Assembly (NCBI GenBank): GCA_022072445.1
Contig: JAJVHV010000030.1
Location: 5,971 to 69,970 of the forward strand
Origin: Phycisphaerae bacterium
GTDB lineage: Bacteria > Planctomycetota > Phycisphaerae > UBA1845 > Fen-1342
Direction: 5' to 3'
Length of the DNA: 64,000 nucleotides
A program made the translations under genes and the position numbers. This document shows positions 14,516 through 28,204 of the stretch, piece by piece (position 1 is the first letter of the stretch; each line of letters starts with the position of its first letter). Under the pieces are notes generated by a model. It saw only the letters and a list, made by a program, of their open reading frames with translations, searched no databases and was not told the origin of the DNA.

Positions 14516-16312
14516 ATGGACCCGGCCCGCATCCGCAACTTCTCGATCGTCGCGCACATCGACCACGGCAAGAGCACGCTCGCCGACCGCCTCCTGCAGC
14601 GCAGCGGCGCCGTGGCCGACCGCGACATGAAGGAGCAGATGCTCGATTCGATGGACCTGGAGCGCGAGCGCGGCATCACGATCAAAGCCAGCGCCGTCAC
14701 CATCTCGGTCACCGTCGACGGCCAGGAGCACATGCTCAATCTGATCGACACGCCCGGACACGTCGACTTTCATTACGAAGTGTCGCGGGCGCTGGCGGCG
14801 TGTGAAGGGGCGCTGCTCGTCGTCGACGCCACGCAGGGCGTCCAGGCCCAGACGGTGGCGAACGCCTACGCCGCCATCGCCGGCAACCTCGAGATCATCC
14901 CGGTGGTCAACAAGGTCGATCTGCCCGGCGCGCATCCGGAGGACACCGCCATCGAGATTGAGCACGTGCTGGGGATCGATTCCGGCCACGTGCAATTCGT
15001 GTCTGCCAAGACCGGCCTGGGGGTTGATGAGATGATTCGCGCGATCGTGCGGCACCTTCCGCCGCCGCGCGGCGACGCCGCGGCACCGCTTCAGGCGCTC
15101 GTATTCGACTCGATCTACGACGACTATCGCGGCGTGATCTGCTACATCCGGCTGTTCAACGGAACGATTCGCAAGGGGCAGAAGGTGCTGCTGATGGGCC
15201 GTGGGCGGCACTACGTGGTCACCGAGCTCGGCAAGCTCCGCCCGAAGATGTCGCCGATCGAGACGCTCGCCGCCGGCGAGGTCGGTTACGTCGTCGCGAA
15301 CATCAAGATGCTGCAGGACGTGACGGTGGGCGACACGATGACCGACGCGCTGACGCCGGCCGCCGAGCCGCTGCCGGGTTATCAGCCGCCCAAGCAGATG
15401 GTTTTCTGCGATTTTTATCCGGCGGGCGGGGAGGACTATTCGGAGTTGCGCGACGCACTGCAGCGGCTGAGCCTGAACGACGCGTCGTTCACGTTCGTCC
15501 CGGAGCACAGCGAGGCGCTCGGCTTTGGCTTCCGCTGCGGATTCCTGGGCCTGCTGCACATGGACATCGTGCAGGAGCGGCTGGAGCGGGAGGCGGGGAT
15601 CGACGTGGTGCAGACGGCGCCGTCGGTGACGTACGAAGTGCTGCTGAACGACGGCGCGCAGTTGCAGATCGACGCCGCCGGCGACCTGCCTTCGGCCGAC
15701 AAGTACCAGGAGCTGCGTGAGCCGATCGTCGAGGTGCAGTTGATTATTCCGGCCGACGCGGTGGGGGCGATCATGAAGCTGACCGAGCAGCGCCGCGGGG
15801 CCTACCGCAAGACCGAGTATCTTTCGACTTCGCGCGTGCTCATGACGTACCACATGCCCTTCAACGAGATTCTCTACGATTTCTATGACAAGCTCAAGAG
15901 CGTGACCCGCGGCTATGGGACGATGGACTACCACTTCATCGGCTACCAGGCCAGCGACCTGGTGAAGCTCGACATTCTGGTCAACAGCGTCGCCGTCGAC
16001 GCCCTTTCGGTCATTCTGCACCGCTCGAACGCCGAGCGCCGCGGGCGGCGCATCATCGCCCGCCTGCGTGAGGAGATCGACAAGCACCTGTTTGAAATTC
16101 CGCTTCAGGCCGCGATCGGCTCGCGCGTTATCGCCCGCGAGACCATCAAGGCCATGCGCAAGAACGTGACGGCGAAGTGCTATGGCGGCGACGTGACCCG
16201 CAAGCGCAAGCTGCTGGAGAAGCAGAAAGAGGGCAAGAAACGGATGAAGACGGTGGGGCGGGTGGATATTCCGCAGAAGGCGTTCATGACGGTGCTGGAG
16301 CCGGAGGAGTAG
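14516..16312 (+). CDS. lepA: elongation factor 4 (LepA)
   Basis: N-terminal NFSIVAHIDHGKSTLADRLL, G-domain and LepA C-terminal domain; ~598 aa from ATG 14516. Confidence 0.9.
   Translation: MDPARIRNFSIVAHIDHGKSTLADRLLQRSGAVADRDMKEQMLDSMDLERERGITIKASAVTISVTVDGQEHMLNLIDTPGHVDFHYEVSRALAACEGALLVVDATQGVQAQTVANAYAAIAGNLEIIPVVNKVDLPGAHPEDTAIEIEHVLGIDSGHVQFVSAKTGLGVDEMIRAIVRHLPPPRGDAAAPLQALVFDSIYDDYRGVICYIRLFNGTIRKGQKVLLMGRGRHYVVTELGKLRPKMSPIETLAAGEVGYVVANIKMLQDVTVGDTMTDALTPAAEPLPGYQPPKQMVFCDFYPAGGEDYSELRDALQRLSLNDASFTFVPEHSEALGFGFRCGFLGLLHMDIVQERLEREAGIDVVQTAPSVTYEVLLNDGAQLQIDAAGDLPSADKYQELREPIVEVQLIIPADAVGAIMKLTEQRRGAYRKTEYLSTSRVLMTYHMPFNEILYDFYDKLKSVTRGYGTMDYHFIGYQASDLVKLDILVNSVAVDALSVILHRSNAERRGRRIIARLREEIDKHLFEIPLQAAIGSRVIARETIKAMRKNVTAKCYGGDVTRKRKLLEKQKEGKKRMKTVGRVDIPQKAFMTVLEPEE
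16061..16312 (+). repeat. direct repeat copy 1 (3' end of lepA), 252 bp
   Basis: 249/252 identical to 17507-17758; the three differences are all synonymous in the lepA frame. Confidence 0.9.
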
Positions 16313-16350
16313 GCGGGCGTACTGTGCGATGTATCGGTGCAGGGAGGTGC

Positions 16351-16713
16351 GTGAATGAACCCGTCGGACTTCCTTATGATGCTGGCGGTGCTCCTTGGGC
16401 GGTTCTCGCGGTTCAGGTGCAGAAGTGGCTCGAGCTGCTTCGTGCGAGCAAACGTCGCCGTCACGAGCTCTTTCGGACTCTCATGACCACTCGAGCCAGT
16501 CGAATCTCACCGGCTCACGTCGAAGCCCTGAACATGATCGATCTAGACTTCGCCGCGGCTAACGACCGTGACAAAGCCGTTCGGATGCCTGGCGGGTCTA
16601 CCACGATCATTCGAACACGCCTGACGATGACAACGAATCGGTGGCCGGGCGATGAGCTGTTCGTCGAGCGCGGCAGCCGGCCCGCAGAGCACTGGCGATC
16701 CGAGGCAACGTAG
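16351..16713 (+). CDS. hypothetical protein inside the lepA-inserted island (start uncertain; ATG at 16483 is an alternative)
   Basis: Open frame only; no recognisable motifs. Confidence 0.25.
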   Translation: MNEPVGLPYDAGGAPWAVLAVQVQKWLELLRASKRRRHELFRTLMTTRASRISPAHVEALNMIDLDFAAANDRDKAVRMPGGSTTIIRTRLTMTTNRWPGDELFVERGSRPAEHWRSEAT

Positions 16714-16779
16714 GGCAGGGTGAACTGGAGCCAGGAGCGACGCTTCCTGAGCGCGGTAGAATAGTCTTGGAGAGTATCG

Positions 16780-17046
16780 ATGACCCTGCACATCCCGCTG
16801 ACGGCGGAATCGGAAGCCCGACTGCGCGAATACGCCGCCGCGGTCGGGAAGGACGTTACTAGCCTGGTTGCGGAGGCCATTGAGGAGAAGCTGTCCCTGC
16901 TCGACGGCGCGCGGGAAGCGCAACGGCGTCCGCGCACGACCGAAGAGTGGCTGGCGGAGTTCGACGCTTGGGTGGACAGCCACAAACCGGCCGGAAACGT
17001 CGCGGACGACAGCCGTGAGGGCATCTATGAGGGGCGCGGCGAGTGA
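16780..17046 (+). CDS. type II antitoxin, ribbon-helix-helix/VapB-like
   Basis: MTLHIPLTAESEARLREYAAAVGKDVTSLVAEAIEEKL has an RHH-like start; stop overlaps the downstream PIN gene start (GTGA). Confidence 0.6.
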   Translation: MTLHIPLTAESEARLREYAAAVGKDVTSLVAEAIEEKLSLLDGAREAQRRPRTTEEWLAEFDAWVDSHKPAGNVADDSREGIYEGRGE

Positions 17047-17501
17047 GAACGCTGCTGGACACCAACGTGCTCGCGCGCATCATCCAGAAATCTCATCCGC
17101 AGCACGAGGCCGCGCGGCGTTCGGTGCGCATCCTGCGAGCGCGTGACGGCGAATTGTGCATCGTCCCGCAAGTGCTCTACGAACTGTGGGTCGTCTGCAC
17201 GAAACCGGCAGGCTCCAATGGGATCGGCCTCAGCATCGCGTCCACACGGGCCGAAATGGCGTCGATCCTGCGATTCACCACGCTGTTTCGCGACGAGCGG
17301 GCGATCTTTGAGCACTGGGACCGCCTGGTCGCCACGCACGACGTGAAGGGCAAGTCCGCTCACGACGCACGGCTGGTGGCCGCCATGTTGCGGCACAAGT
17401 TGACGCACATCCTCACCTTCAACACAGGTGATTTTCGCCGCTACCCAGAGATCGAAGTTCTAACGCCCGCAACGATTGTTAGCGACGCGAGCCGCGGATG
17501 A
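17043..17501 (+). CDS. PIN-domain toxin (VapC family)
   Basis: LLDTNVL motif at the N-terminus (first PIN acidic residue); further acidic residues spaced as in PIN; GTG start coupled to the antitoxin. Confidence 0.75.
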
Positions 17502-17506
17502 AGGGA

Positions 17507-17758
17507 CGCCTGCGTGAGGAGATCGACAAGCACCTGTTTGAAATTCCGCTTCAGGCCGCGATCGGCTCGCGCGTTATCGCCCGCGAGACCATCAAGGCCA
17601 TGCGCAAGAACGTGACGGCGAAGTGCTATGGCGGCGACGTGACGCGGAAGCGCAAGTTGCTGGAGAAGCAGAAAGAGGGCAAGAAACGGATGAAGACGGT
17701 GGGGCGGGTGGATATTCCGCAGAAGGCGTTCATGACGGTGCTGGAGCCGGAGGAGTAG
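17507..17758 (+). pseudogene. orphan duplicate of the lepA 3'-terminal 84 codons (direct repeat copy 2)
   Basis: Encodes [16 protein letters not shown]...TVLEPEE, identical in protein sequence to the LepA C-terminus; no upstream lepA body. Confidence 0.7.
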
Positions 17759-17815: not shown

Positions 17816-18046
17816 ATGGAAATGATGCCAGCCGAGCTTACGATCATCTACGAGCGCGGTGCCGAGGGTCGGTGGGTCGCAACCATCCCCGAAGTACCCG
17901 GCGCGTTCTCTCAGGGCAAGACCAAGGCCGAGGCCCGCGAGAACGTGTTGGACGCACTCAGCGAGTTGATGCTCGCGCGCCGAGATCGGGCGCTGCGAGA
18001 ACGCACCAGTTCCGGTGACGTCGAGACGGTGCCGCTGGCCGGTTAG
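17816..18046 (+). CDS. HicB-family type II antitoxin-like protein (orphan)
   Basis: LTIIYERGAEGRWVATIPEVPGAFSQGKTKAEARENVLDALSELM is the HicB/UPF0150 signature; no hicA is adjacent. Confidence 0.55.
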   Translation: MEMMPAELTIIYERGAEGRWVATIPEVPGAFSQGKTKAEARENVLDALSELMLARRDRALRERTSSGDVETVPLAG

Positions 18047-18204
18047 CGCTCCGCGGGTGGGTCGATCCTTCCCGCAGCAATTCGCAGCCTTGTTTGCGCA
18101 AATGTCGGACGAGCCTGGCGCGCTTCATACGTCCCTACATGGTCTCGCGGCTGCGGCGCGGCCTCTCGGCACCAGGACGCCTCCGCGCTGCTGCGCGCGG
18201 CAAC

Positions 18205-21366: not shown

Positions 21367-22365
21367 TCACCCGGCAGGTTCGCCGCACGAGCAGACCGGG
21401 GGCTCAGTCTGAATGAGCAGGCCAGTCGGCAGCGGCTCACCGCCAACGTCGGTTTCGAACAGCTCTGCCGCGAGGATGCGGTAGTTGCGCCCGTAGCGCT
21501 CGCACTCCGCGTCCGCCCACTCCAGCCCGAAGCCCAGCAATTGCCCGCTCGCCAGGTCGTCGGGCCAGCCCAGGCCGGCCGCCGAAAGCGGCAGGTCGAG
21601 CACGAGGAATATCTGCTCGCCATCAGACGGAACATCGACGACCAGATAGCGCTCGTCGCCAAAGGACTCGAGCGGCATCCCGGCCCGCAACCGGACGGCG
21701 GCCAGGCGGAAGACCTCGCATTCCCGCTGTCGGCCGGCGGACGCGGAAAACTCGGCGAGCACGAAGACGCGCAGTACGACCGGATTGCCGGGCCGATAGA
21801 CGTGCGGAATCGCGGCGCGCCAGCCAACCGGATACTCCAGCGTCGGGCTTGAAACGAGCAGCGCGTCGGCCGCGACCTGCCCTTCCTCCGCCGACGCACC
21901 CCGCGCGCCGCCGCGATTGTTCGGATCGCGCGGCGTTCCGTCGGCGCCGAGCGTGACGAAGTCGTCGATGAATACGTCAAAAAGCGGCGCAGCGCTCAGC
22001 CCTGGCGGACCTGGCTCGCCCGGCGGCCCCTGCTCACCGGGTGCCCCCGGTTCGCCCGGTGCTCCCGGCGGCCCAGCGGCACCGTCCTCGCCTTGCGGTC
22101 CCGATGGGCCGGCTGGCCCATCGGCGCCTGGAATGGCGCGCCCCGCCGCCTCCTCCAGTGCCTGATTCAGCTCGTCGTCGAACGCCTGGCGCTGGGCGTC
22201 GAGTGCCGCCAGTGCGATCAGCGCCGCGCCCGACGAGAACAGCAGATCGCGCCCATAATCCTGAAGAAAGAAAGCCGAACCGGGGCTGCATCCGACGCTG
22301 ACGCCGAACATCGCCGCCAGCGCGCAGAATCGGCGCCCGCGGCGGAATCGCCGCTTGTTTCGCAT
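21367..22365 (-). CDS. secreted collagen-like (Gly-X-Y triple-helix repeat) protein with C-terminal globular domain
   Basis: Signal peptide [28 protein letters not shown]; 16 uninterrupted G-X-Y triplets [43 protein letters not shown]. Confidence 0.7.
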
Positions 22366-22503
22366 TCCATGCTCCGCAAGCCCGACAGGGTGACGGCAAA
22401 CCGGCGCCGATCGACGCCGGCGCCGCGAGATCTGAGCCCTCGCTGGAACTATAGGCGCCACCCAGGTGGGATCAAGCCGCGGCTGCCCTCGTGTGTTGAT
22501 TTT

Positions 22504-23475
22504 CTAGGACAGGTCAGTCGGCTTGCGGGCGGCGATCCAGAAATTGTCGCTGAGTGGATTCGCTTTCACCGAAATGACCTCGAATCCGACATTGACGATC
22601 AGGCGGCCAAGCGTCGCCGGTGAGAAGTATTGCACGTGCTCGGGCCAGCGATAACCCGACCAGCGTGCTCCGAGAACGCGGCGCAGCAGGCAGTCGTAAT
22701 TCGGCGTTTTGTGAACCGTCACGCCGCCCGGCCGCAGCAGCTCGAACAGCCGGCGCAACACCGGCGCGGGGCGCGGCTCGTGTTCCAGATAGCTGACGGT
22801 GACAGCCAGGTCGAACGAGCCGCGTTCAAGGTCGAAATCCGCCAGCCGGCCGCACAAGACGCGCTCCGCACCCATCCGCCGCGCGGCACGCGACGCCATC
22901 TTCGGCGACGGCTCGACGCCGATCGCGTCGTACCCCCAGCGCAGCGCCAGGGCCGGCAGGCGCCCGTCTCCGCAGCCGACGTCGATCATCCGCGCGCGGC
23001 GCGTGCCGCTTGGCACTTCGGTTCCGCTCGGCGCTGCGCGCGTGCCGCTGGGCGCTGCGCGCGTGGCGTGAAGCTCACTCGGCGTCGCGCCCAGGCTCCC
23101 GTCGACGGCGATGGTCGGCGGGGCGCTGCGGCGAATCCAGCGCAGGGCGCGCGCTTCGCGGCTGGGCTTCATGAAGAGCACGGACATCGTCCAAGCCCGC
23201 GCGAAGGGGTTGCGCATCCAGCGCTCCATCCGCTCGCGCTTGAACGACTCGCTCCACTCGAACTCGGTGTCGATCGCCTCGTCGGTCGGATACTCGGGCA
23301 TGTACGGCAGCCCGCAGCCGGCGCAGCCGACCAGCCGCCAGCGGTCGTGCCGCAGCAGTTCGGCGCCGCCGACAGCGTCGCACACAGGGCAGGGGCGCGA
23401 TTCGGTCCGTTCGGCGGAGTGCGCGTCGCCGGCCCTGATCGTGCGAGGCTCAGTCATTCCGGCACCTCGCGCCAC
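22504..23475 (-). CDS. class I SAM-dependent methyltransferase with N-terminal zinc ribbon
   Basis: CPVCDA...CAGCG zinc ribbon; SAM motif I VIDVGCGDGRL and a post-I acidic residue. Confidence 0.8.
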   Translation of the reverse strand: MARGAGMTEPRTIRAGDAHSAERTESRPCPVCDAVGGAELLRHDRWRLVGCAGCGLPYMPEYPTDEAIDTEFEWSESFKRERMERWMRNPFARAWTMSVLFMKPSREARALRWIRRSAPPTIAVDGSLGATPSELHATRAAPSGTRAAPSGTEVPSGTRRARMIDVGCGDGRLPALALRWGYDAIGVEPSPKMASRAARRMGAERVLCGRLADFDLERGSFDLAVTVSYLEHEPRPAPVLRRLFELLRPGGVTVHKTPNYDCLLRRVLGARWSGYRWPEHVQYFSPATLGRLIVNVGFEVISVKANPLSDNFWIAARKPTDLS

Positions 23476-24101
23476 GTTCGCACCTCTGCGGCGACTGCTC
23501 CGAAGCCGACCGGGAACGCGTTCTCAAGCTCGCCTATAGTCCTCGCGACTCGCTCGCAATGCTCAACCGCGCATTTCGTTGCAAGCTCGAGCGAAGGACG
23601 ATCCGTACCGTAGACCGAGTTCTTGAGTTCACGCATCCGCGATCGCGCCGTCGTGCGTGCCCGTAAGTCCCGTATCCAGGCGACTTCCGTCGCGTGTGGA
23701 TCAATGCCGCAACGGTACCATGCTTCGATGGCAGGCATCGCCACACCGATGGCTACGCTGAACGGCGCGCGTCCGACGACATGCTTCAGCATGTCGCGCG
23801 TCTGGTGAACTTCCCGGCGTACTACGCAAAGTCGGCATCGGTCCGTCGCGCAATTTGCCGCAGGACCGCCTTCGTGTGGCGGCGACCCATTCGAATCAAC
23901 GACTACCACCAAACCTCGCACGTCGCTTTGATAGTACAGGGCGCGCATGACTCCTGGCAGCATCTGATACACGTTGGGCCAGCCACGCGCCCGAAAAGGT
24001 GGGTGCTCTGGCGGTTTTGTCGTCAATCCGAGGATCGCGTTTGCCAGAACGCGCAGTGCGGCTTCGTCGGCCGGGGATTCACTCAGAATTGCCACCTTCA
24101 T
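23454..24101 (-). CDS. DUF4276-like (TOPRIM-like) protein, partner of the upstream ABC-type ATPase
   Basis: MKVAILSESPADEA...GLVVVVDSNGS (Glu in strand 1 and a later acidic cluster, as in TOPRIM/DUF4276). Its ATG overlaps the ATPase stop as ATGA. Confidence 0.55.
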   Translation of the reverse strand: MKVAILSESPADEAALRVLANAILGLTTKPPEHPPFRARGWPNVYQMLPGVMRALYYQSDVRGLVVVVDSNGSPPHEGGPAANCATDRCRLCVVRREVHQTRDMLKHVVGRAPFSVAIGVAMPAIEAWYRCGIDPHATEVAWIRDLRARTTARSRMRELKNSVYGTDRPSLELATKCAVEHCERVARTIGELENAFPVGFGAVAAEVRTWREVPE

Positions 24102-25090
24102 GGCCTGCTCGGAACGCCGCCGAGCACACCCGTGTACCACGCGTCGCCGAGCGGCGCCTGCTGCAATATCTCGTCAATGTCCGGCCGGTCAATGAGCCGG
24201 GTGAACCTCGCTTCAAGGTCATGCTTGTCGGCGATGACCACGCACTCGGGATACTCGCGGAAGAGATCAAGAAAGTAAGGCGAGTGCGTCGTGGCAAGCA
24301 CCTGGACAGCCGGCCGGGCCGCCCCAACGGATTCCGGATGGCACAGCCGGAAGATCGCGTCGCGGACGTCCCGAAGCAGACGCGGGTGCAATCCGCGATC
24401 GGGCTCTTCAAGGCAGACCAGCGGAGGCGGCTCGGGCAGGTGGCTGAGCAGCAGCAGCGCCAGCGCGATCAACGTGCCGTGAGACAGGTCCTCGGCGGCG
24501 ATCTGATGCTTGCCGCTCACAGTCCGAAGTGCAACCGATTTCGCGTTCTGCTTGGGAACCAACTGCACATAATCGTACTCCGGAAGCCAGCGCCGGACTT
24601 CGGCGACGAACGACTCGAAGTTTTCGGGATGCAGGTCCTTGAGATTGTCGATCACCGAAGCGAGCTTTTCGCCACGCTCACCAAGTTCCGGCGATGGCTC
24701 TACGCCAGACGGCTGCTTGAGGACTTGGGCCTCAAATGTGAATGCGCGGATTCGAGAGAAGAACTCCTGGACGTTCGGACTCAGTTGACCGCGACTGGCC
24801 TGAGGATCGACCCATGCTCCCTTCTCCGAACCGGTTTCCCAAACACGCCTGACGACGTTGGAGTCAGAGAGTCGGCACGAAATCTCAATGCCGCGCTTCG
24901 GCGCGCCAACGGAAGCGGATCCGCTCAGTGCCCTACTGACTTTGCCCGCGAGCGCGAGGATGCCATCGACGGCAGTCGACTTCCCGGCACCGTTGGGACC
25001 CACCAGTAACGTGAACGGCCCTAACGGCAGCGTCGTGTCGCGCAGAACGCGAAAGTTCTTGAAATCAATGGATTCGATTGAGAGTGCCAT
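24098..25090 (-). CDS. AAA_21/ABC-type ATPase (OLD/RecF-like SMC-head ATPase)
   Basis: Walker A LLVGPNGAGKST, Walker B/D-loop LVCLEEPDRGLHP, H-loop ATTHSP. Confidence 0.85.
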   Translation of the reverse strand: MALSIESIDFKNFRVLRDTTLPLGPFTLLVGPNGAGKSTAVDGILALAGKVSRALSGSASVGAPKRGIEISCRLSDSNVVRRVWETGSEKGAWVDPQASRGQLSPNVQEFFSRIRAFTFEAQVLKQPSGVEPSPELGERGEKLASVIDNLKDLHPENFESFVAEVRRWLPEYDYVQLVPKQNAKSVALRTVSGKHQIAAEDLSHGTLIALALLLLSHLPEPPPLVCLEEPDRGLHPRLLRDVRDAIFRLCHPESVGAARPAVQVLATTHSPYFLDLFREYPECVVIADKHDLEARFTRLIDRPDIDEILQQAPLGDAWYTGVLGGVPSRP

Positions 25091-25181
25091 GTCCCTCGTA
25101 TCCTAGCACGCGCGCACTAGCCCACGCAAACACACGCCGCGCGCCCGCGCCACCTGGGCGGCCACTCCGACGATTCGGCTC

Positions 25182-26693
25182 TCAGGCGCTCCGCAGCCGC
25201 AGCACCGCGCACACAACGCGCGCCCCGAACCACACAACGATCAGCCCTCCCGCCATCGCACGCGCCGTGACGAGCAAATCGCCAAACGTGAACCGGCCAA
25301 CGATCGCCGTCTGATCGGCCCAGTACCAAAACGCCGCTCCCAGCCCCTCGCCCAGCGCGACGACCAGCACGAAGCCCGCCACCGCCGGCGGGATCGCCGC
25401 GGCGGACGCAAGCACACACAGGGCCGTGTAGCGGCGGATGTCGCGGCGCGGCCGCAGACCGACGAGCAGCGCCGCAACGCTGATGAGCAGCATCCCGGCG
25501 GCACGGATGCCGGCGAAGATCGCGAGCGGGACACATGCCACCAGCAGCCAGTTCCCGCCATTTCCGCCGCCGCGGGCTTCAAGTGCGTCAAGAGTCAAGG
25601 CGAGCGCGGCCAGCGGCGCAGGTATCGCCGCCAGCAGCGATAGCACGAGCGAAACGCCGAGTCGCACGTCGGCGGCGCGGACCACCAGTGCGGTGTCGGC
25701 GAGCATCTGCGGGCGCCGCATGACCCGCCACATGACGCGCAGCCAGTGCCAACGCGAGACCGGTGACCCGCCGATCGCCTCCCGCTCGGCCAGCGCGGCA
25801 AGCGTCGCGGCGATCGGCTGGCCACACTCGGGACACTGACCAGCGAGCGGCAAACCGACCAGCAGGTAGTCGCACCGGACACATCGCGGCGGGACGGCGA
25901 GCGGCTCGCCGCTGTCGGACGGCGCGGCGATGAGCCCGTCGGAAGCGAGTGCGAGAGGCGCTGTCGCGCTCGCCGCCGTTGGCCGTGGCGCGCCTCCGCG
26001 CCCGAGGCGCAGGACGATCGCGAACCACCACGCCATGACCAGCGCCGCCAGCGAAACCAGCAGCATTTCGAACTCATCGCCGTTCAGCTTGGGTCGCGCT
26101 GTGATCCAGGCGAACCCGACCACAAGCCATAGGACCGCGCCAAACGGCAGAATGGCGTTGCTCCACAGCCCAAGCTTGACGCACCGCGCCACCAGGCCGC
26201 CGGTTGTCTCGCGCACCGCGACCCACGGCACGGCGCACAGGCCGAGCACGACCGCAACCGCCGCGACGGCCAGAACCAGGCCCGGAAACGCAAGCACGTC
26301 GCCGAGCGGCGCGGAGCGCAGGTAGAGTGTCGAGACGACGCCCGCCACGATGCGCCGCGGCGGATCGAGCGGCCCGTCCAGCGCGGGCGGAAGCTCGGGC
26401 GGGCCCAGTGTGCCGTCGGTCCGAACGATCTTGATCTGCCACGGGCCGGGGTTCGGAGTGTAGAAAAGACTGTCTGCCAGTGCAACGACCAGAGTCGCCA
26501 GAGCTGACATCAGGACGTGCATGGCCAGCGTGCGGCGCCACGACACGCCGGCCAGCCTGGCGCCTGCACGAAGCGGTGTGAAGACGACTCTCCCCGCCAA
26601 AACGATGGGGTTGCTTCGACCGGCCGCGGCCTGCGCGGCGCCTTTCATCGGCGGAGCTGCGCGCAGCGGTTGGAAGACTGCGCCGTTGGTCAT
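25182..26693 (-). CDS. polytopic membrane protein with internal zinc ribbon
   Basis: Multiple TM segments; CVRCDYLL...CPECGQ; ATGA overlap with the upstream gene. Confidence 0.55.
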   Translation of the reverse strand: MTNGAVFQPLRAAPPMKGAAQAAAGRSNPIVLAGRVVFTPLRAGARLAGVSWRRTLAMHVLMSALATLVVALADSLFYTPNPGPWQIKIVRTDGTLGPPELPPALDGPLDPPRRIVAGVVSTLYLRSAPLGDVLAFPGLVLAVAAVAVVLGLCAVPWVAVRETTGGLVARCVKLGLWSNAILPFGAVLWLVVGFAWITARPKLNGDEFEMLLVSLAALVMAWWFAIVLRLGRGGAPRPTAASATAPLALASDGLIAAPSDSGEPLAVPPRCVRCDYLLVGLPLAGQCPECGQPIAATLAALAEREAIGGSPVSRWHWLRVMWRVMRRPQMLADTALVVRAADVRLGVSLVLSLLAAIPAPLAALALTLDALEARGGGNGGNWLLVACVPLAIFAGIRAAGMLLISVAALLVGLRPRRDIRRYTALCVLASAAAIPPAVAGFVLVVALGEGLGAAFWYWADQTAIVGRFTFGDLLVTARAMAGGLIVVWFGARVVCAVLRLRSA

Positions 26694-28204
26694 GGCTGAT
26701 CGTCCATCGCGCTTTCGTCCGGCTCGCTCACCGGAACGAGGCGCGGCTCGTTCGCGGGTGCGGCACGCGGACCTGCGTAATCGATGTCATCCAGCTCGCG
26801 CGACGGGTCGCGCTTGCCGCCGTCGTCGCGCGCGTTGTAGCCACACGAATAGAGTTGAATGCTCCCGTCGTCGCTGTGCACGTAGCGGAACGTCTGACCC
26901 GGAGTGATTGGATCGTCGGGAAGCGCCGCGAGGAATTCCGGGACCAGCTCGCGCAGCTCCGCCGGATAGCGATGATGCACGCGATGAAATCGCTGCAGGG
27001 CGATCAGGACGCTTATCGACCTCCATTGCGCCAGGTTGCCGAGCGGTATCTGGTACGTCCGCGTGCTGAAGGGATGCCCCCGGTCGGGTGACTGCCCCAG
27101 CAGCGGGCCGGCAGCGGCCGAGTACATCTCGACGGTTCTCAGTCCATCCAATCGAGCCACGGCCTGTCGATACGGCAGCTCCACCACCGATTCGGCCCGC
27201 TGGAAGAGCCGGTCGATGCGTGCTTCGATCGTGCGGCGGTCGTCGTAAATCGGCGAGAGCAGATTCCAAAGCCGGCTGCGCGCGGCCGGGGCCACGGACC
27301 CAGTGAAGGAAAGGGTGTACGTGTCGGGCTGGTCCGCCAGGACGAGCCAGCCGTTGCCATCGGCGCCGCGCGTGTAGCACATATTGACCATCAGCAGCAC
27401 GAGCCGGCGCTCGCCACGCAGCGCGCTCTGCCAGCTCGCTACGGCGTCTGGGGGCAATGCGACGAAGGCGCTCATGTCGGCCAGCAGGCCGTCGTCAGGC
27501 GAATTTTCCAGGAGCCACAAGGACGTTTCCGAGAGGGCCAGCGATTCGCATGCCACCCCGACCAGCATGTTGACCATGTAGACATGTTCGATGCCGCGTG
27601 AAATCGCAAGCGCGGCCCGCAAGCACTCCCAGGCCCTTCGCCCGTCGCGGCGCTCCTCGCGGAAGTAACGCGACGCACTACAGAGCAGCTTCACGGCGGC
27701 CCTGACCTCGGAGGAATGGATTGACGTACCGCTGTTGTCAGAGAAAAAAACGTCGATCACGAACGGCCGATCAGCCAAAGCGCACATGTCGGCGAGATGC
27801 GACTGCATCGCCGGATCGTCCAACGTGCGGATCATGCGGCGTAGCCCTGGGCGCTCTGCCGGCGACCAGGGACCTCGGCGCACGTCGTCATAGTCTAATT
27901 GATGAATGGGGCCGGATAGGGGGTCCCATGCAAACCCCGGCGGCGCTGGCTCATCGAACACCGGCGGAGCCGGCAGACGATCAAACAGCCGTCGCCACTC
28001 CGGCGTAGCGTCGTCGGGCCTGCGCGTCAGGTGCGCGGCACCGAGCGATGCGTAGTCGCCCAAACGAACGACACTGCGGCGGTTCCAGCGCTCGACGGCG
28101 AACTGGGAGAACGGTACCAGCAGCGCGATCAGGGCGATGGCAGCGATCAGCAGGACGGCTCTTCGCCCACGCCGCGCCGCCCGCCGGCCCGTCGCGCTGC
28201 TCAT
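26690..28204 (-). CDS. N-terminally membrane-anchored hypothetical protein
   Basis: MSSATGRRAARRGRRAVLLIAAIALIALLV signal-anchor; 504 aa with no motif; 9 bp downstream of the peptidase gene. Confidence 0.55.
   Translation of the reverse strand: MSSATGRRAARRGRRAVLLIAAIALIALLVPFSQFAVERWNRRSVVRLGDYASLGAAHLTRRPDDATPEWRRLFDRLPAPPVFDEPAPPGFAWDPLSGPIHQLDYDDVRRGPWSPAERPGLRRMIRTLDDPAMQSHLADMCALADRPFVIDVFFSDNSGTSIHSSEVRAAVKLLCSASRYFREERRDGRRAWECLRAALAISRGIEHVYMVNMLVGVACESLALSETSLWLLENSPDDGLLADMSAFVALPPDAVASWQSALRGERRLVLLMVNMCYTRGADGNGWLVLADQPDTYTLSFTGSVAPAARSRLWNLLSPIYDDRRTIEARIDRLFQRAESVVELPYRQAVARLDGLRTVEMYSAAAGPLLGQSPDRGHPFSTRTYQIPLGNLAQWRSISVLIALQRFHRVHHRYPAELRELVPEFLAALPDDPITPGQTFRYVHSDDGSIQLYSCGYNARDDGGKRDPSRELDDIDYAGPRAAPANEPRLVPVSEPDESAMDDQP

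Follow-up and report, generated by a model that had tools for sequence, protein, structure and literature searches.

We describe a pair of genes in a 64,000-nucleotide stretch of contig JAJVHV010000030.1, from a Phycisphaerae bacterium (the whole stretch is referred to below as the window). Gene A encodes a compact ABC/SMC-type ATPase, and gene B, which is translationally coupled to it, encodes a small TOPRIM-like protein that is probably a metal-dependent nuclease. We judge it somewhat better than an even proposition that the two genes form a self-contained operon of the split OLD type, in which a minimal ABC/SMC-type ATPase and a separate TOPRIM metal-dependent nuclease work together in an abortive-infection or toxin–antitoxin (TA)-like manner. 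The architecture of the pair makes an anti-phage role plausible. The features on which the argument rests are:

24098–25090, minus strand: gene A, compact ABC/SMC-type ATPase, 330 amino acids (Pfam and PADLOC matches, motifs and structural model)
23454–24101, minus strand, ATG at 24101: gene B, TOPRIM-like probable metal-dependent nuclease, 215 amino acids
24098–24101, minus strand: 4-nt stop/start overlap from gene A to gene B (ccATGAagg), which couples translation
25091–25181, minus strand: intergenic leader (91 bp) on the upstream side of gene A; a Shine–Dalgarno-like GAGGGA lies just before the ATG

An obligate gene pair

Our sample of loci comprised six look-ups and 80 metagenome loci. 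The ATPase family was found directly upstream of the partner in all 83 loci with any upstream sequence (81 of them non-redundant, from several phyla) and in all 56 with at least 1 kb of it. An earlier note on this DNA, made from the letters alone, had described ATGA coupling of the ATPase to a 215-residue protein carrying VVVVDSNGS; this is indeed what we see, and the same 4-nt overlap recurs in 75 of the 83 loci, with a 1-nt overlap in four more. The two families also co-vary, their pairwise identities being correlated with r = 0.70 (Mantel p ≤ 0.001, mirror-tree comparison). Because the ATPase family lies upstream in every one of the 83 loci, the pairing is not due to chance: it is obligate and co-evolving. 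No third gene recurred in 35 loci, and no fusions of ATPase and partner were seen among the best 150 representatives of the partner family.

The 91-bp leader is presumed to be the promoter region of gene A. A promoter scan found no sigma-70 consensus within it and gave consensus-level sites alone, at 24192–24165 and 22475–22448. The former, a sigma-70-like match (9/12) on the minus strand, falls 64 nt upstream of the gene B start codon, still within the 3′ end of gene A; though no more than a consensus-level match, it could allow separate expression of gene B.

Gene A encodes a compact ATPase

The earlier note's description of gene A as a 330-residue AAA_21-type ATPase was borne out. All three motifs that it listed are present: the Walker A motif GPNGAGKST (residues 31–39), LEEPDRGLHP (227–236) and TTHSP (267–271). 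We also found a signature-like LSHGT (202–206), the Walker B/catalytic pair E228–E229, H235–P236, and the H-loop (T267–P271). In Pfam, both AAA_21 (PF13304; 87.8 bits, E = 1.8e-24, cutoff 27) and AAA_15 (PF13175; 65.6 bits, E = 8.2e-18, cutoff 32.1) scored above threshold. The Walker A motif, the LS[Q/H]GT signature, E228–E229, H235–P236 and TH269SP are invariant or nearly so among 45 ATPase family members; since these ATP-binding and hydrolysis motifs have been kept across the family, gene A is predicted to be an active ATPase.

Among the PADLOC models, the best match was HEC-01A (3.6e-42). HEC-01 is Hma-embedded candidate 01, which consists of an ABC ATPase, HEC-01A, and a TOPRIM protein, HEC-01B (Payne et al., bioRxiv 10.1101/2024.01.29.577857). 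It was followed by mad3 (3.3e-31) and AriA (8.8e-25) and, more weakly, by Old, AbiLi (3.7e-13), GajA and PtuA. The NCBIfam MAD3 model gave 109 bits against a cutoff of 420, and gene A is therefore no MAD3 equivalog.

The nearest sequence in the PDB is that of Ts OLD, the class 1 OLD nuclease of Thermus scotoductus (6p74, 2.3e-12). The confident AlphaFold2 model of gene A (predicted local distance difference test score, pLDDT, 92.1) shows a compact ABC head that lacks a long coiled coil. The top Foldseek matches to this model were PtuA chains from Septu and retron complexes, Rad50/SMC heads and Ts OLD, with E values of 1e-13 to 1e-11.

Gene B encodes a TOPRIM-like partner

Gene B begins with MKVAILSESPADEA, and its VVVVDSNGS cluster occupies residues 65–73. 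Scans of the protein itself with the models of Pfam, NCBIfam and PADLOC gave no match at a limit as loose as E ≤ 10 (the Pfam scan likewise gave no HNH match), and a profile search against the PDB sequences returned noise alone, with ARF GTPases at E > 0.2. A Phycisphaerae metagenome-assembled genome encodes a protein identical to the window protein. The family consists of proteins of ~200–230 residues, typically ~210. It forms 1566 clusters at 90% identity and 700 at 50% identity among 1.84 billion representatives (351 score E ≤ 1e-30), and none of its clusters carries a Pfam annotation.

The confident AlphaFold2 model of gene B (pLDDT 92.4; predicted template modeling score, pTM, 0.90) has an N-terminal alpha/beta core of ~130 residues, in which strands 2–6, 63–69 and 115–121 alternate with helices, and a helical C-terminal domain. 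The core holds E8, D69-S-N71 and E126; the C-terminal domain holds E139, K160, Y164 and R208. E8, directly after strand 2–6, is invariant (47 of 47 and 45 of 45 sequences), as are D69, which ends the VVVV strand, and E126, after the third strand (45–47 sequences). At position 71, 31 of 45 sequences carry D and the other 14 carry N; the window protein, which reads D-S-N, is of the latter type. E139, K160 and Y164 are invariant in the family and R208 is nearly so. As modeled, the invariant residues appear to occupy the places of TOPRIM metal ligands, on an alpha/beta core that resembles the TOPRIM domains of the OLD/AriB type. The fold itself supports the TOPRIM assignment of gene B and does not settle it, because generic alpha/beta folds scored about as well in the structure comparison and Foldseek found nothing significant for the model in the PDB.

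Weak sequence matches point the same way. Among 47 members of the partner family, 23 matched the PADLOC model HEC-01B (best 9.3e-5), 12 matched mad4 and 12 PDC-M38B, and 13 matched Pfam RloB (PF13707; best E 0.0081), the window protein not being among these last. The family consensus matched HEC-01B at 7.3e-6 (residues 1–130), mad4 at 2.6e-3, and RloB at 22.7 bits (E = 1.2e-4, residues 56–190), which is below the 31.5-bit gathering threshold. Individually weak, these matches converge on small TOPRIM-type partners of AAA_21 ATPases.

The earlier note had called gene B DUF4276/TOPRIM-like. The second half of that label stands; the first does not, as DUF4276 (PF14103) was matched neither by the window protein (E ≤ 10) nor by the 47 members (E ≤ 1) or the consensus (E ≤ 10), and the nearest models, HEC-01B, Mad4 and RloB, are matched weakly or below threshold. 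A published analysis assigns RloB and DUF4276/Mad4 to the Toprim superfamily by virtue of a conserved Glu plus DxD (PMC12065111). Any resemblance of gene B to DUF4276 is thus at the superfamily level at most, the sole link being the weak match to mad4, which has been called DUF4276-like. The note had also proposed a search for DUF4435, the family of a PARIS AriB for which a lactococcal study lists a structure match (PMC11381338); neither DUF4435 (PF14491) nor PADLOC AriB was matched by the window protein, the 47 family members or the consensus.

One might suppose instead that the partner is a TOPRIM-like or Rossmann-like protein without catalytic activity, which would act as an adaptor or bind a ligand, and that the ATPase is the effector or belongs to some other machine. 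The asparagine that replaces the second DxD aspartate in the window protein and in 31% of the family would fit this, as would the lack of any curated TOPRIM model above threshold. We nevertheless think it improbable: four invariant acidic residues stand at strand ends as TOPRIM metal ligands do, K160 and Y164 are invariant and R208 nearly so, and the independent weak matches (HEC-01B, mad4, RloB and PDC-M38B) are all to TOPRIM-type partners of AAA_21 ATPases.

Genomic context and distribution

The pair stands alone among housekeeping genes, with flanks that differ between lineages (sulfatases, smpB, ECH/NAPRTase, DUF3142). Named members of the partner family belong to Phycisphaerae, to other Planctomycetota, and to Binatia and Blastocatellia; ATPase family members also come from Verrucomicrobiota, Gemmataceae and Pyrinomonadaceae. 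The earlier note had held that a pair core and syntenic with its neighbors across the phylum would speak against its reading. This is not what we found: the pair was absent from all 80 loci anchored on the S46 peptidase, which share no other neighbor with the window, and in other phyla it occurs in unrelated contexts. The GC contents at third codon positions (GC3) of the ATPase (0.72) and the partner (0.64) are the 6th and 4th lowest of 40 in the window (z = −1.0 and −1.9, respectively). Neither border of the pair carries repeats, direct or inverted, that we find convincing, and there is no tRNA in the window. Judging by these comparisons, the pair appears to be accessory and was probably acquired horizontally; homologs from different phyla are ~50% identical, which implies spread by horizontal transfer.

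These data bear on the idea that the pair is a housekeeping nucleic-acid factor, acting in DNA repair, chromosome processing or RNA maturation, for which Cran1 and, more loosely, RecF/RecR would be precedents. Its neighbors are indeed housekeeping genes, no association with mobile elements was found, the related HEC-01 gave no defense, and Cran1, an archaeal class 5 OLD protein, shows that an essential non-defense role is possible (PMC12796447). A rare and patchy family (~700 clusters at 50% identity among 1.84 billion), missing beside the S46 anchor in 80 related genomes, with unrelated flanks between lineages, an identity across phyla that implies horizontal spread, and GC3 below that of the host genes, is hardly what such a factor would look like, and we give this explanation little weight.

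The split OLD-type defense reading has its own points against it. No defense-island, phage, plasmid or mobile-element context was found around the pair. The 143 flanking ORFs (open reading frames) from 35 loci belong mostly to housekeeping families, with few PADLOC matches, and integrases, transposases and restriction–modification genes are absent from the 25 commonest Pfam families among them. The flank census did include PADLOC matches to "pVip", which are most likely MoaA-type radical SAM enzymes, because an equal number of ORFs (three) matches Mob_synth_C and Radical_SAM. By tblastn, partner homologs numbered zero in 50,697 phage and 72,556 plasmid records, in which the ATPase gave N-terminal P-loop matches alone, to OLD/RecF-like genes; they were also zero in 2.9 million IMG/VR viral contigs. 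The compositional anomaly of the pair is modest, the window protein carries N rather than D at the second DxD position, and HEC-01 did not protect E. coli against any phage tested (bioRxiv 10.1101/2024.01.29.577857). The lack of an island context is not disqualifying, because class 1 OLD genes are likewise solitary in variable neighborhoods.

Some neighborhoods outside the window deserve mention for their own sake. In locus L003 (4018–6633, from a 4.9-Mb genome), the pair lies ~0.5–0.9 kb downstream of smpB, by tblastn and by the public gene-call starts, respectively. The smpB/ssrA vicinity is a classic integration hotspot. The public call for the L003 ATPase is 188 residues long, yet tblastn aligns 98%, which suggests a frameshift or an assembly error. 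In the Blastocatellia-type loci L002 (1–1716) and L004 (1–1620), large HEAT+AAA_21 or DUF4062+NACHT proteins are encoded ~3.3–3.4 kb upstream of the pair, with metabolic genes in between. Being of the STAND/ATPase type, they may be defense genes, and they gave the only hint of a defense neighborhood that we saw.

A possible mechanism

In the split OLD-type reading, for which PARIS, AbiL, Septu and P2 OLD serve as models, an oligomer of the ATPase would bind the TOPRIM nuclease and keep it inactive. The ATPase would sense a trigger, which may be a phage protein or an aberrant nucleic acid, and the TOPRIM protein would then be released or activated and could cleave tRNA or DNA, leading to growth arrest of an abortive-infection or toxin–antitoxin-like kind. 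In PARIS, AriA holds the AriB tRNase and frees it upon sensing Ocr (PMC11464382, PMC13064643). AbiL offers a further precedent for an ATPase with a TOPRIM effector (PMC13064643), as do TOPRIM toxins that are neutralized by AAA proteins (PMC10440598), and P2 OLD is now reported to be a tRNase whose opening follows destabilization of its tetramer.

The same architecture would also suit a selfish toxin–antitoxin addiction module, with the TOPRIM protein as toxin and the ATPase as antitoxin, and without any anti-phage role. The solitary position of the pair among housekeeping genes in many phyla, outside islands, agrees with this, and so do the tight translational coupling, the fixed gene order and the presence of further TA genes nearby in the window (see below). 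NetFlax validated AAA "antitoxins" with TOPRIM_OLD/RloB toxins as TA-like pairs (PMC10440598), and PARIS itself acts as a type II TA system (PMC13064643). TA behavior and abortive defense are not exclusive, however, and the validated cases read as defense systems (PMC13064643, PMC10440598). Moreover, because the catalytic site of the ATPase is fully conserved, regulated sensing is suggested over simple sequestration. Addiction modules are typically common on plasmids, and the partner family is absent from the plasmid records. On balance, we regard a purely selfish module as unlikely.

A variant in which the pair does not behave like its better-known relatives merits somewhat more attention, if still a minor share of our expectation: it may represent a discrete, uncurated, minimal split-OLD clade, made up of a 330-residue ATPase without a coiled-coil insert and a 215-residue TOPRIM-like protein with a D-x-[D/N] motif, whose trigger, target or role (possibly a non-defense one) would be unlike those of PARIS, AbiL or OLD. 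Its named members are from environmental phyla such as Planctomycetota, Acidobacteriota and Verrucomicrobiota, and every instance of the pair that we saw was on a genome or metagenome contig.

The downstream methyltransferase

A further gene follows gene B on the same strand:

22504–23457, minus strand: zinc-ribbon class I S-adenosylmethionine (SAM) methyltransferase (Methyltransf_23, 9.1e-24), with an N-terminal CPVC...CAGC zinc ribbon

The earlier note had this gene overlapping gene B by 22 nt. Adjacency and strand are as it said; the 22-nt figure is true for an upstream GTG start alone, and the public call begins at ATG 23457, a start that the sequence also favors and that shares another ATGA with the stop of gene B. 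In this genome, the methyltransferase is therefore probably co-transcribed with the pair.

That arrangement raises the prospect of a three-gene methylation-linked system, either restriction–modification-like or akin to MADS, in which the methyltransferase would label self, leaving the pair to attack any nucleic acid that lacked the mark. Besides the ATGA overlap between the gene B stop and its ATG, the methyltransferase has a weak match to PADLOC mad2 (8.2e-13), to set beside the matches of the pair to mad3 and mad4, and mad2–4 are required for MADS defense. Against this, a homolog of the methyltransferase was found in none of 87 partner-family loci, no third gene recurs in the 35 loci compared, and its GC3 of 0.855 is host-like and unlike that of the pair. 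Its best Pfam matches are to generic SAM-methyltransferase families (Methyltransf_23/11/25/12/31); in NCBIfam, the leading models are of the DVU_1556, UbiG and BioC types, and none of them comes near its cutoff. We take these to be small-molecule rather than DNA methyltransferase types. Gene A falls far below the MAD3 cutoff, as given above, and no candidates for the mandatory MAD6–8 were seen in the flanks, which carry either no Pfam domains or unrelated ones (this was judged from Pfam domains alone, the flanks not having been scanned with the mad models). We consider a three-gene system very improbable. Because no locus of the 87 holds a homolog and the GC3 matches that of the host, the methyltransferase is a host neighbor gene and not a component of the module, and a role for it beside the pair is not supported.

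Within the methyltransferase gene, short imperfect tandem DNA repeats (22989–23059) encode a repeated TRAAPSGT-like linker between the zinc ribbon and the methyltransferase domain. Further downstream, a gene for a collagen-like protein with GPxG triple-helix repeats (21367–22461, minus strand; Pfam Collagen, 9.9e-8) adjoins a GT2 glycosyltransferase and an NAD_binding_4 reductase/epimerase; this neighborhood may be a cell-surface or glycan cluster that includes the methyltransferase.

Other features of the window

Just upstream of the pair are two overlapping genes of ~500 codons without Pfam domains:

25182–26693, minus strand
26690–28204, minus strand

The 503-residue upstream neighbor appears membrane-like, with a CxxC...CxxC motif, and is an ORFan that matched itself alone among 5.8 billion proteins.

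Elsewhere in the window, a 278-nt direct repeat of 96% identity (16035–16312 and 17481–17758) duplicates the 3′ end of lepA/EF4 and brackets ~1.2 kb (16313–17480). The bracketed segment contains:

16396–16713: DUF6680 fragment
16780–17046: small antitoxin-like ORF (sub-threshold PSK_trans_fac, E 0.0075)
17043–17501: PIN-domain, VapC-like gene overlapping the antitoxin-like ORF

The segment has the look of a small integrative insertion that duplicated its target. Close to it are two convergent ORFs, which may be a decayed or rearranged HicAB module (17816–18128):

17816–18046, plus strand: HicB/UPF0150-like antitoxin ORF (1.3e-5, just under the Pfam cutoff)
17958–18128, minus strand: 56-residue ORF, HicA-like by eye, with no Pfam match

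Implications

Pairs in which an ABC ATPase accompanies a TOPRIM protein (OLD, Gabija, PARIS, AbiL, HEC-01) make up a large and partly charted branch of prokaryotic immunity. The partner family, with its ~700 clusters at 50% identity, contributes to this a well-defined clade that curated models do not see, from poorly studied environmental phyla and with an unusually small ATPase. If active, the pair would extend the annotation of defense systems to Planctomycetota and Acidobacteriota and would offer a minimal model of an ABC ATPase that gates a TOPRIM nuclease. The solitary housekeeping setting and the negative HEC-01 assay also counsel caution against calling every ATPase–nuclease pair a defense system. 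The practical gain is modest: the partner family would receive a new hidden Markov model, and there is one candidate more to test.

Comparison with known systems

The earlier note knew of no established named system for the pair. One candidate does exist in PADLOC: on sequence grounds, HEC-01 is the nearest named entity. It, too, consists of an ABC ATPase and a small TOPRIM protein encoded by two genes, its ATPase is the best PADLOC model for gene A, and about half of the partner family, together with the consensus, matches HEC-01B over the N-terminal core. The differences are that the ATPase here has 330 residues, as compared with 363–464 positions in the models, that the pair is not embedded in Hma or any other defense system, and that the window partner matches no HEC-01B model, so that a PADLOC call of the locus is not expected.

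AbiL of Lactococcus pairs a Rad50-like ATPase, AbiLi, with an RloB/TOPRIM effector, AbiLii, which has been described as RloB/OLD-TOPRIM-like (PMC13064643, PMC10440598). Like our pair, it is a bicistronic unit in which the ATPase precedes a TOPRIM-like effector; gene A matches the PADLOC AbiLi model, and the partner consensus has a sub-threshold similarity to RloB. That similarity falls short of the curated cutoff, however, and the window protein has no match. AbiL is plasmid-borne in Firmicutes, whereas the family described here lies on the chromosomes of Planctomycetota, Acidobacteriota and Verrucomicrobiota, and the search of plasmid records did not find it.

PARIS (class 4 OLD) comprises the ABC ATPase AriA and AriB, a DUF4435 TOPRIM tRNase. 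It shares with the pair its split architecture, gene order and the match of gene A to AriA, and likely also the logic of an ATPase that holds a toxic TOPRIM effector. Unlike AriB, the partner has no DUF4435 or AriB match; the AriA match is weaker than that to HEC-01A; and the 330-residue ATPase contrasts with an AriA of ~53–55 kDa that has a coiled-coil insertion (PMC11464382). PARIS is often carried on phages and satellites (PMC11464382), whereas searches of phage and viral collections turned up no member of the partner family.

The remaining systems are further removed. In OLD classes 1–3 (P2 Old, Ts OLD, GajA, and the effector of retron Eco8), which include the solved sequence nearest to gene A, both domains are on one chain of ~500–600 residues, and here they are on two ORFs with an ATGA overlap; moreover, neither a GajB helicase nor a retron reverse transcriptase or noncoding RNA, which would be expected for classes 2 and 3, lies near the pair. 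In MADS, an eight-gene methylation-associated system, Mad3 and Mad4 are an ATPase and a DUF4276-like TOPRIM protein; the ATPase matches mad3 and the partner family weakly matches mad4, but the MAD3 score is far below its cutoff and the neighboring methyltransferase does not accompany the pair in other loci. For Septu (PtuA/PtuB), the fold of the ATPase is nearest to PtuA, but the partner is an alpha/beta, TOPRIM-like protein without an HNH match. Membership was accordingly rejected for DUF4276, RloB at its curated cutoff, PARIS/DUF4435, MADS, the fused OLD classes and Septu. The pair, whose partner family has no curated model, is best described as a divergent relative of the split-OLD kind that HEC-01, AbiL and PARIS represent.

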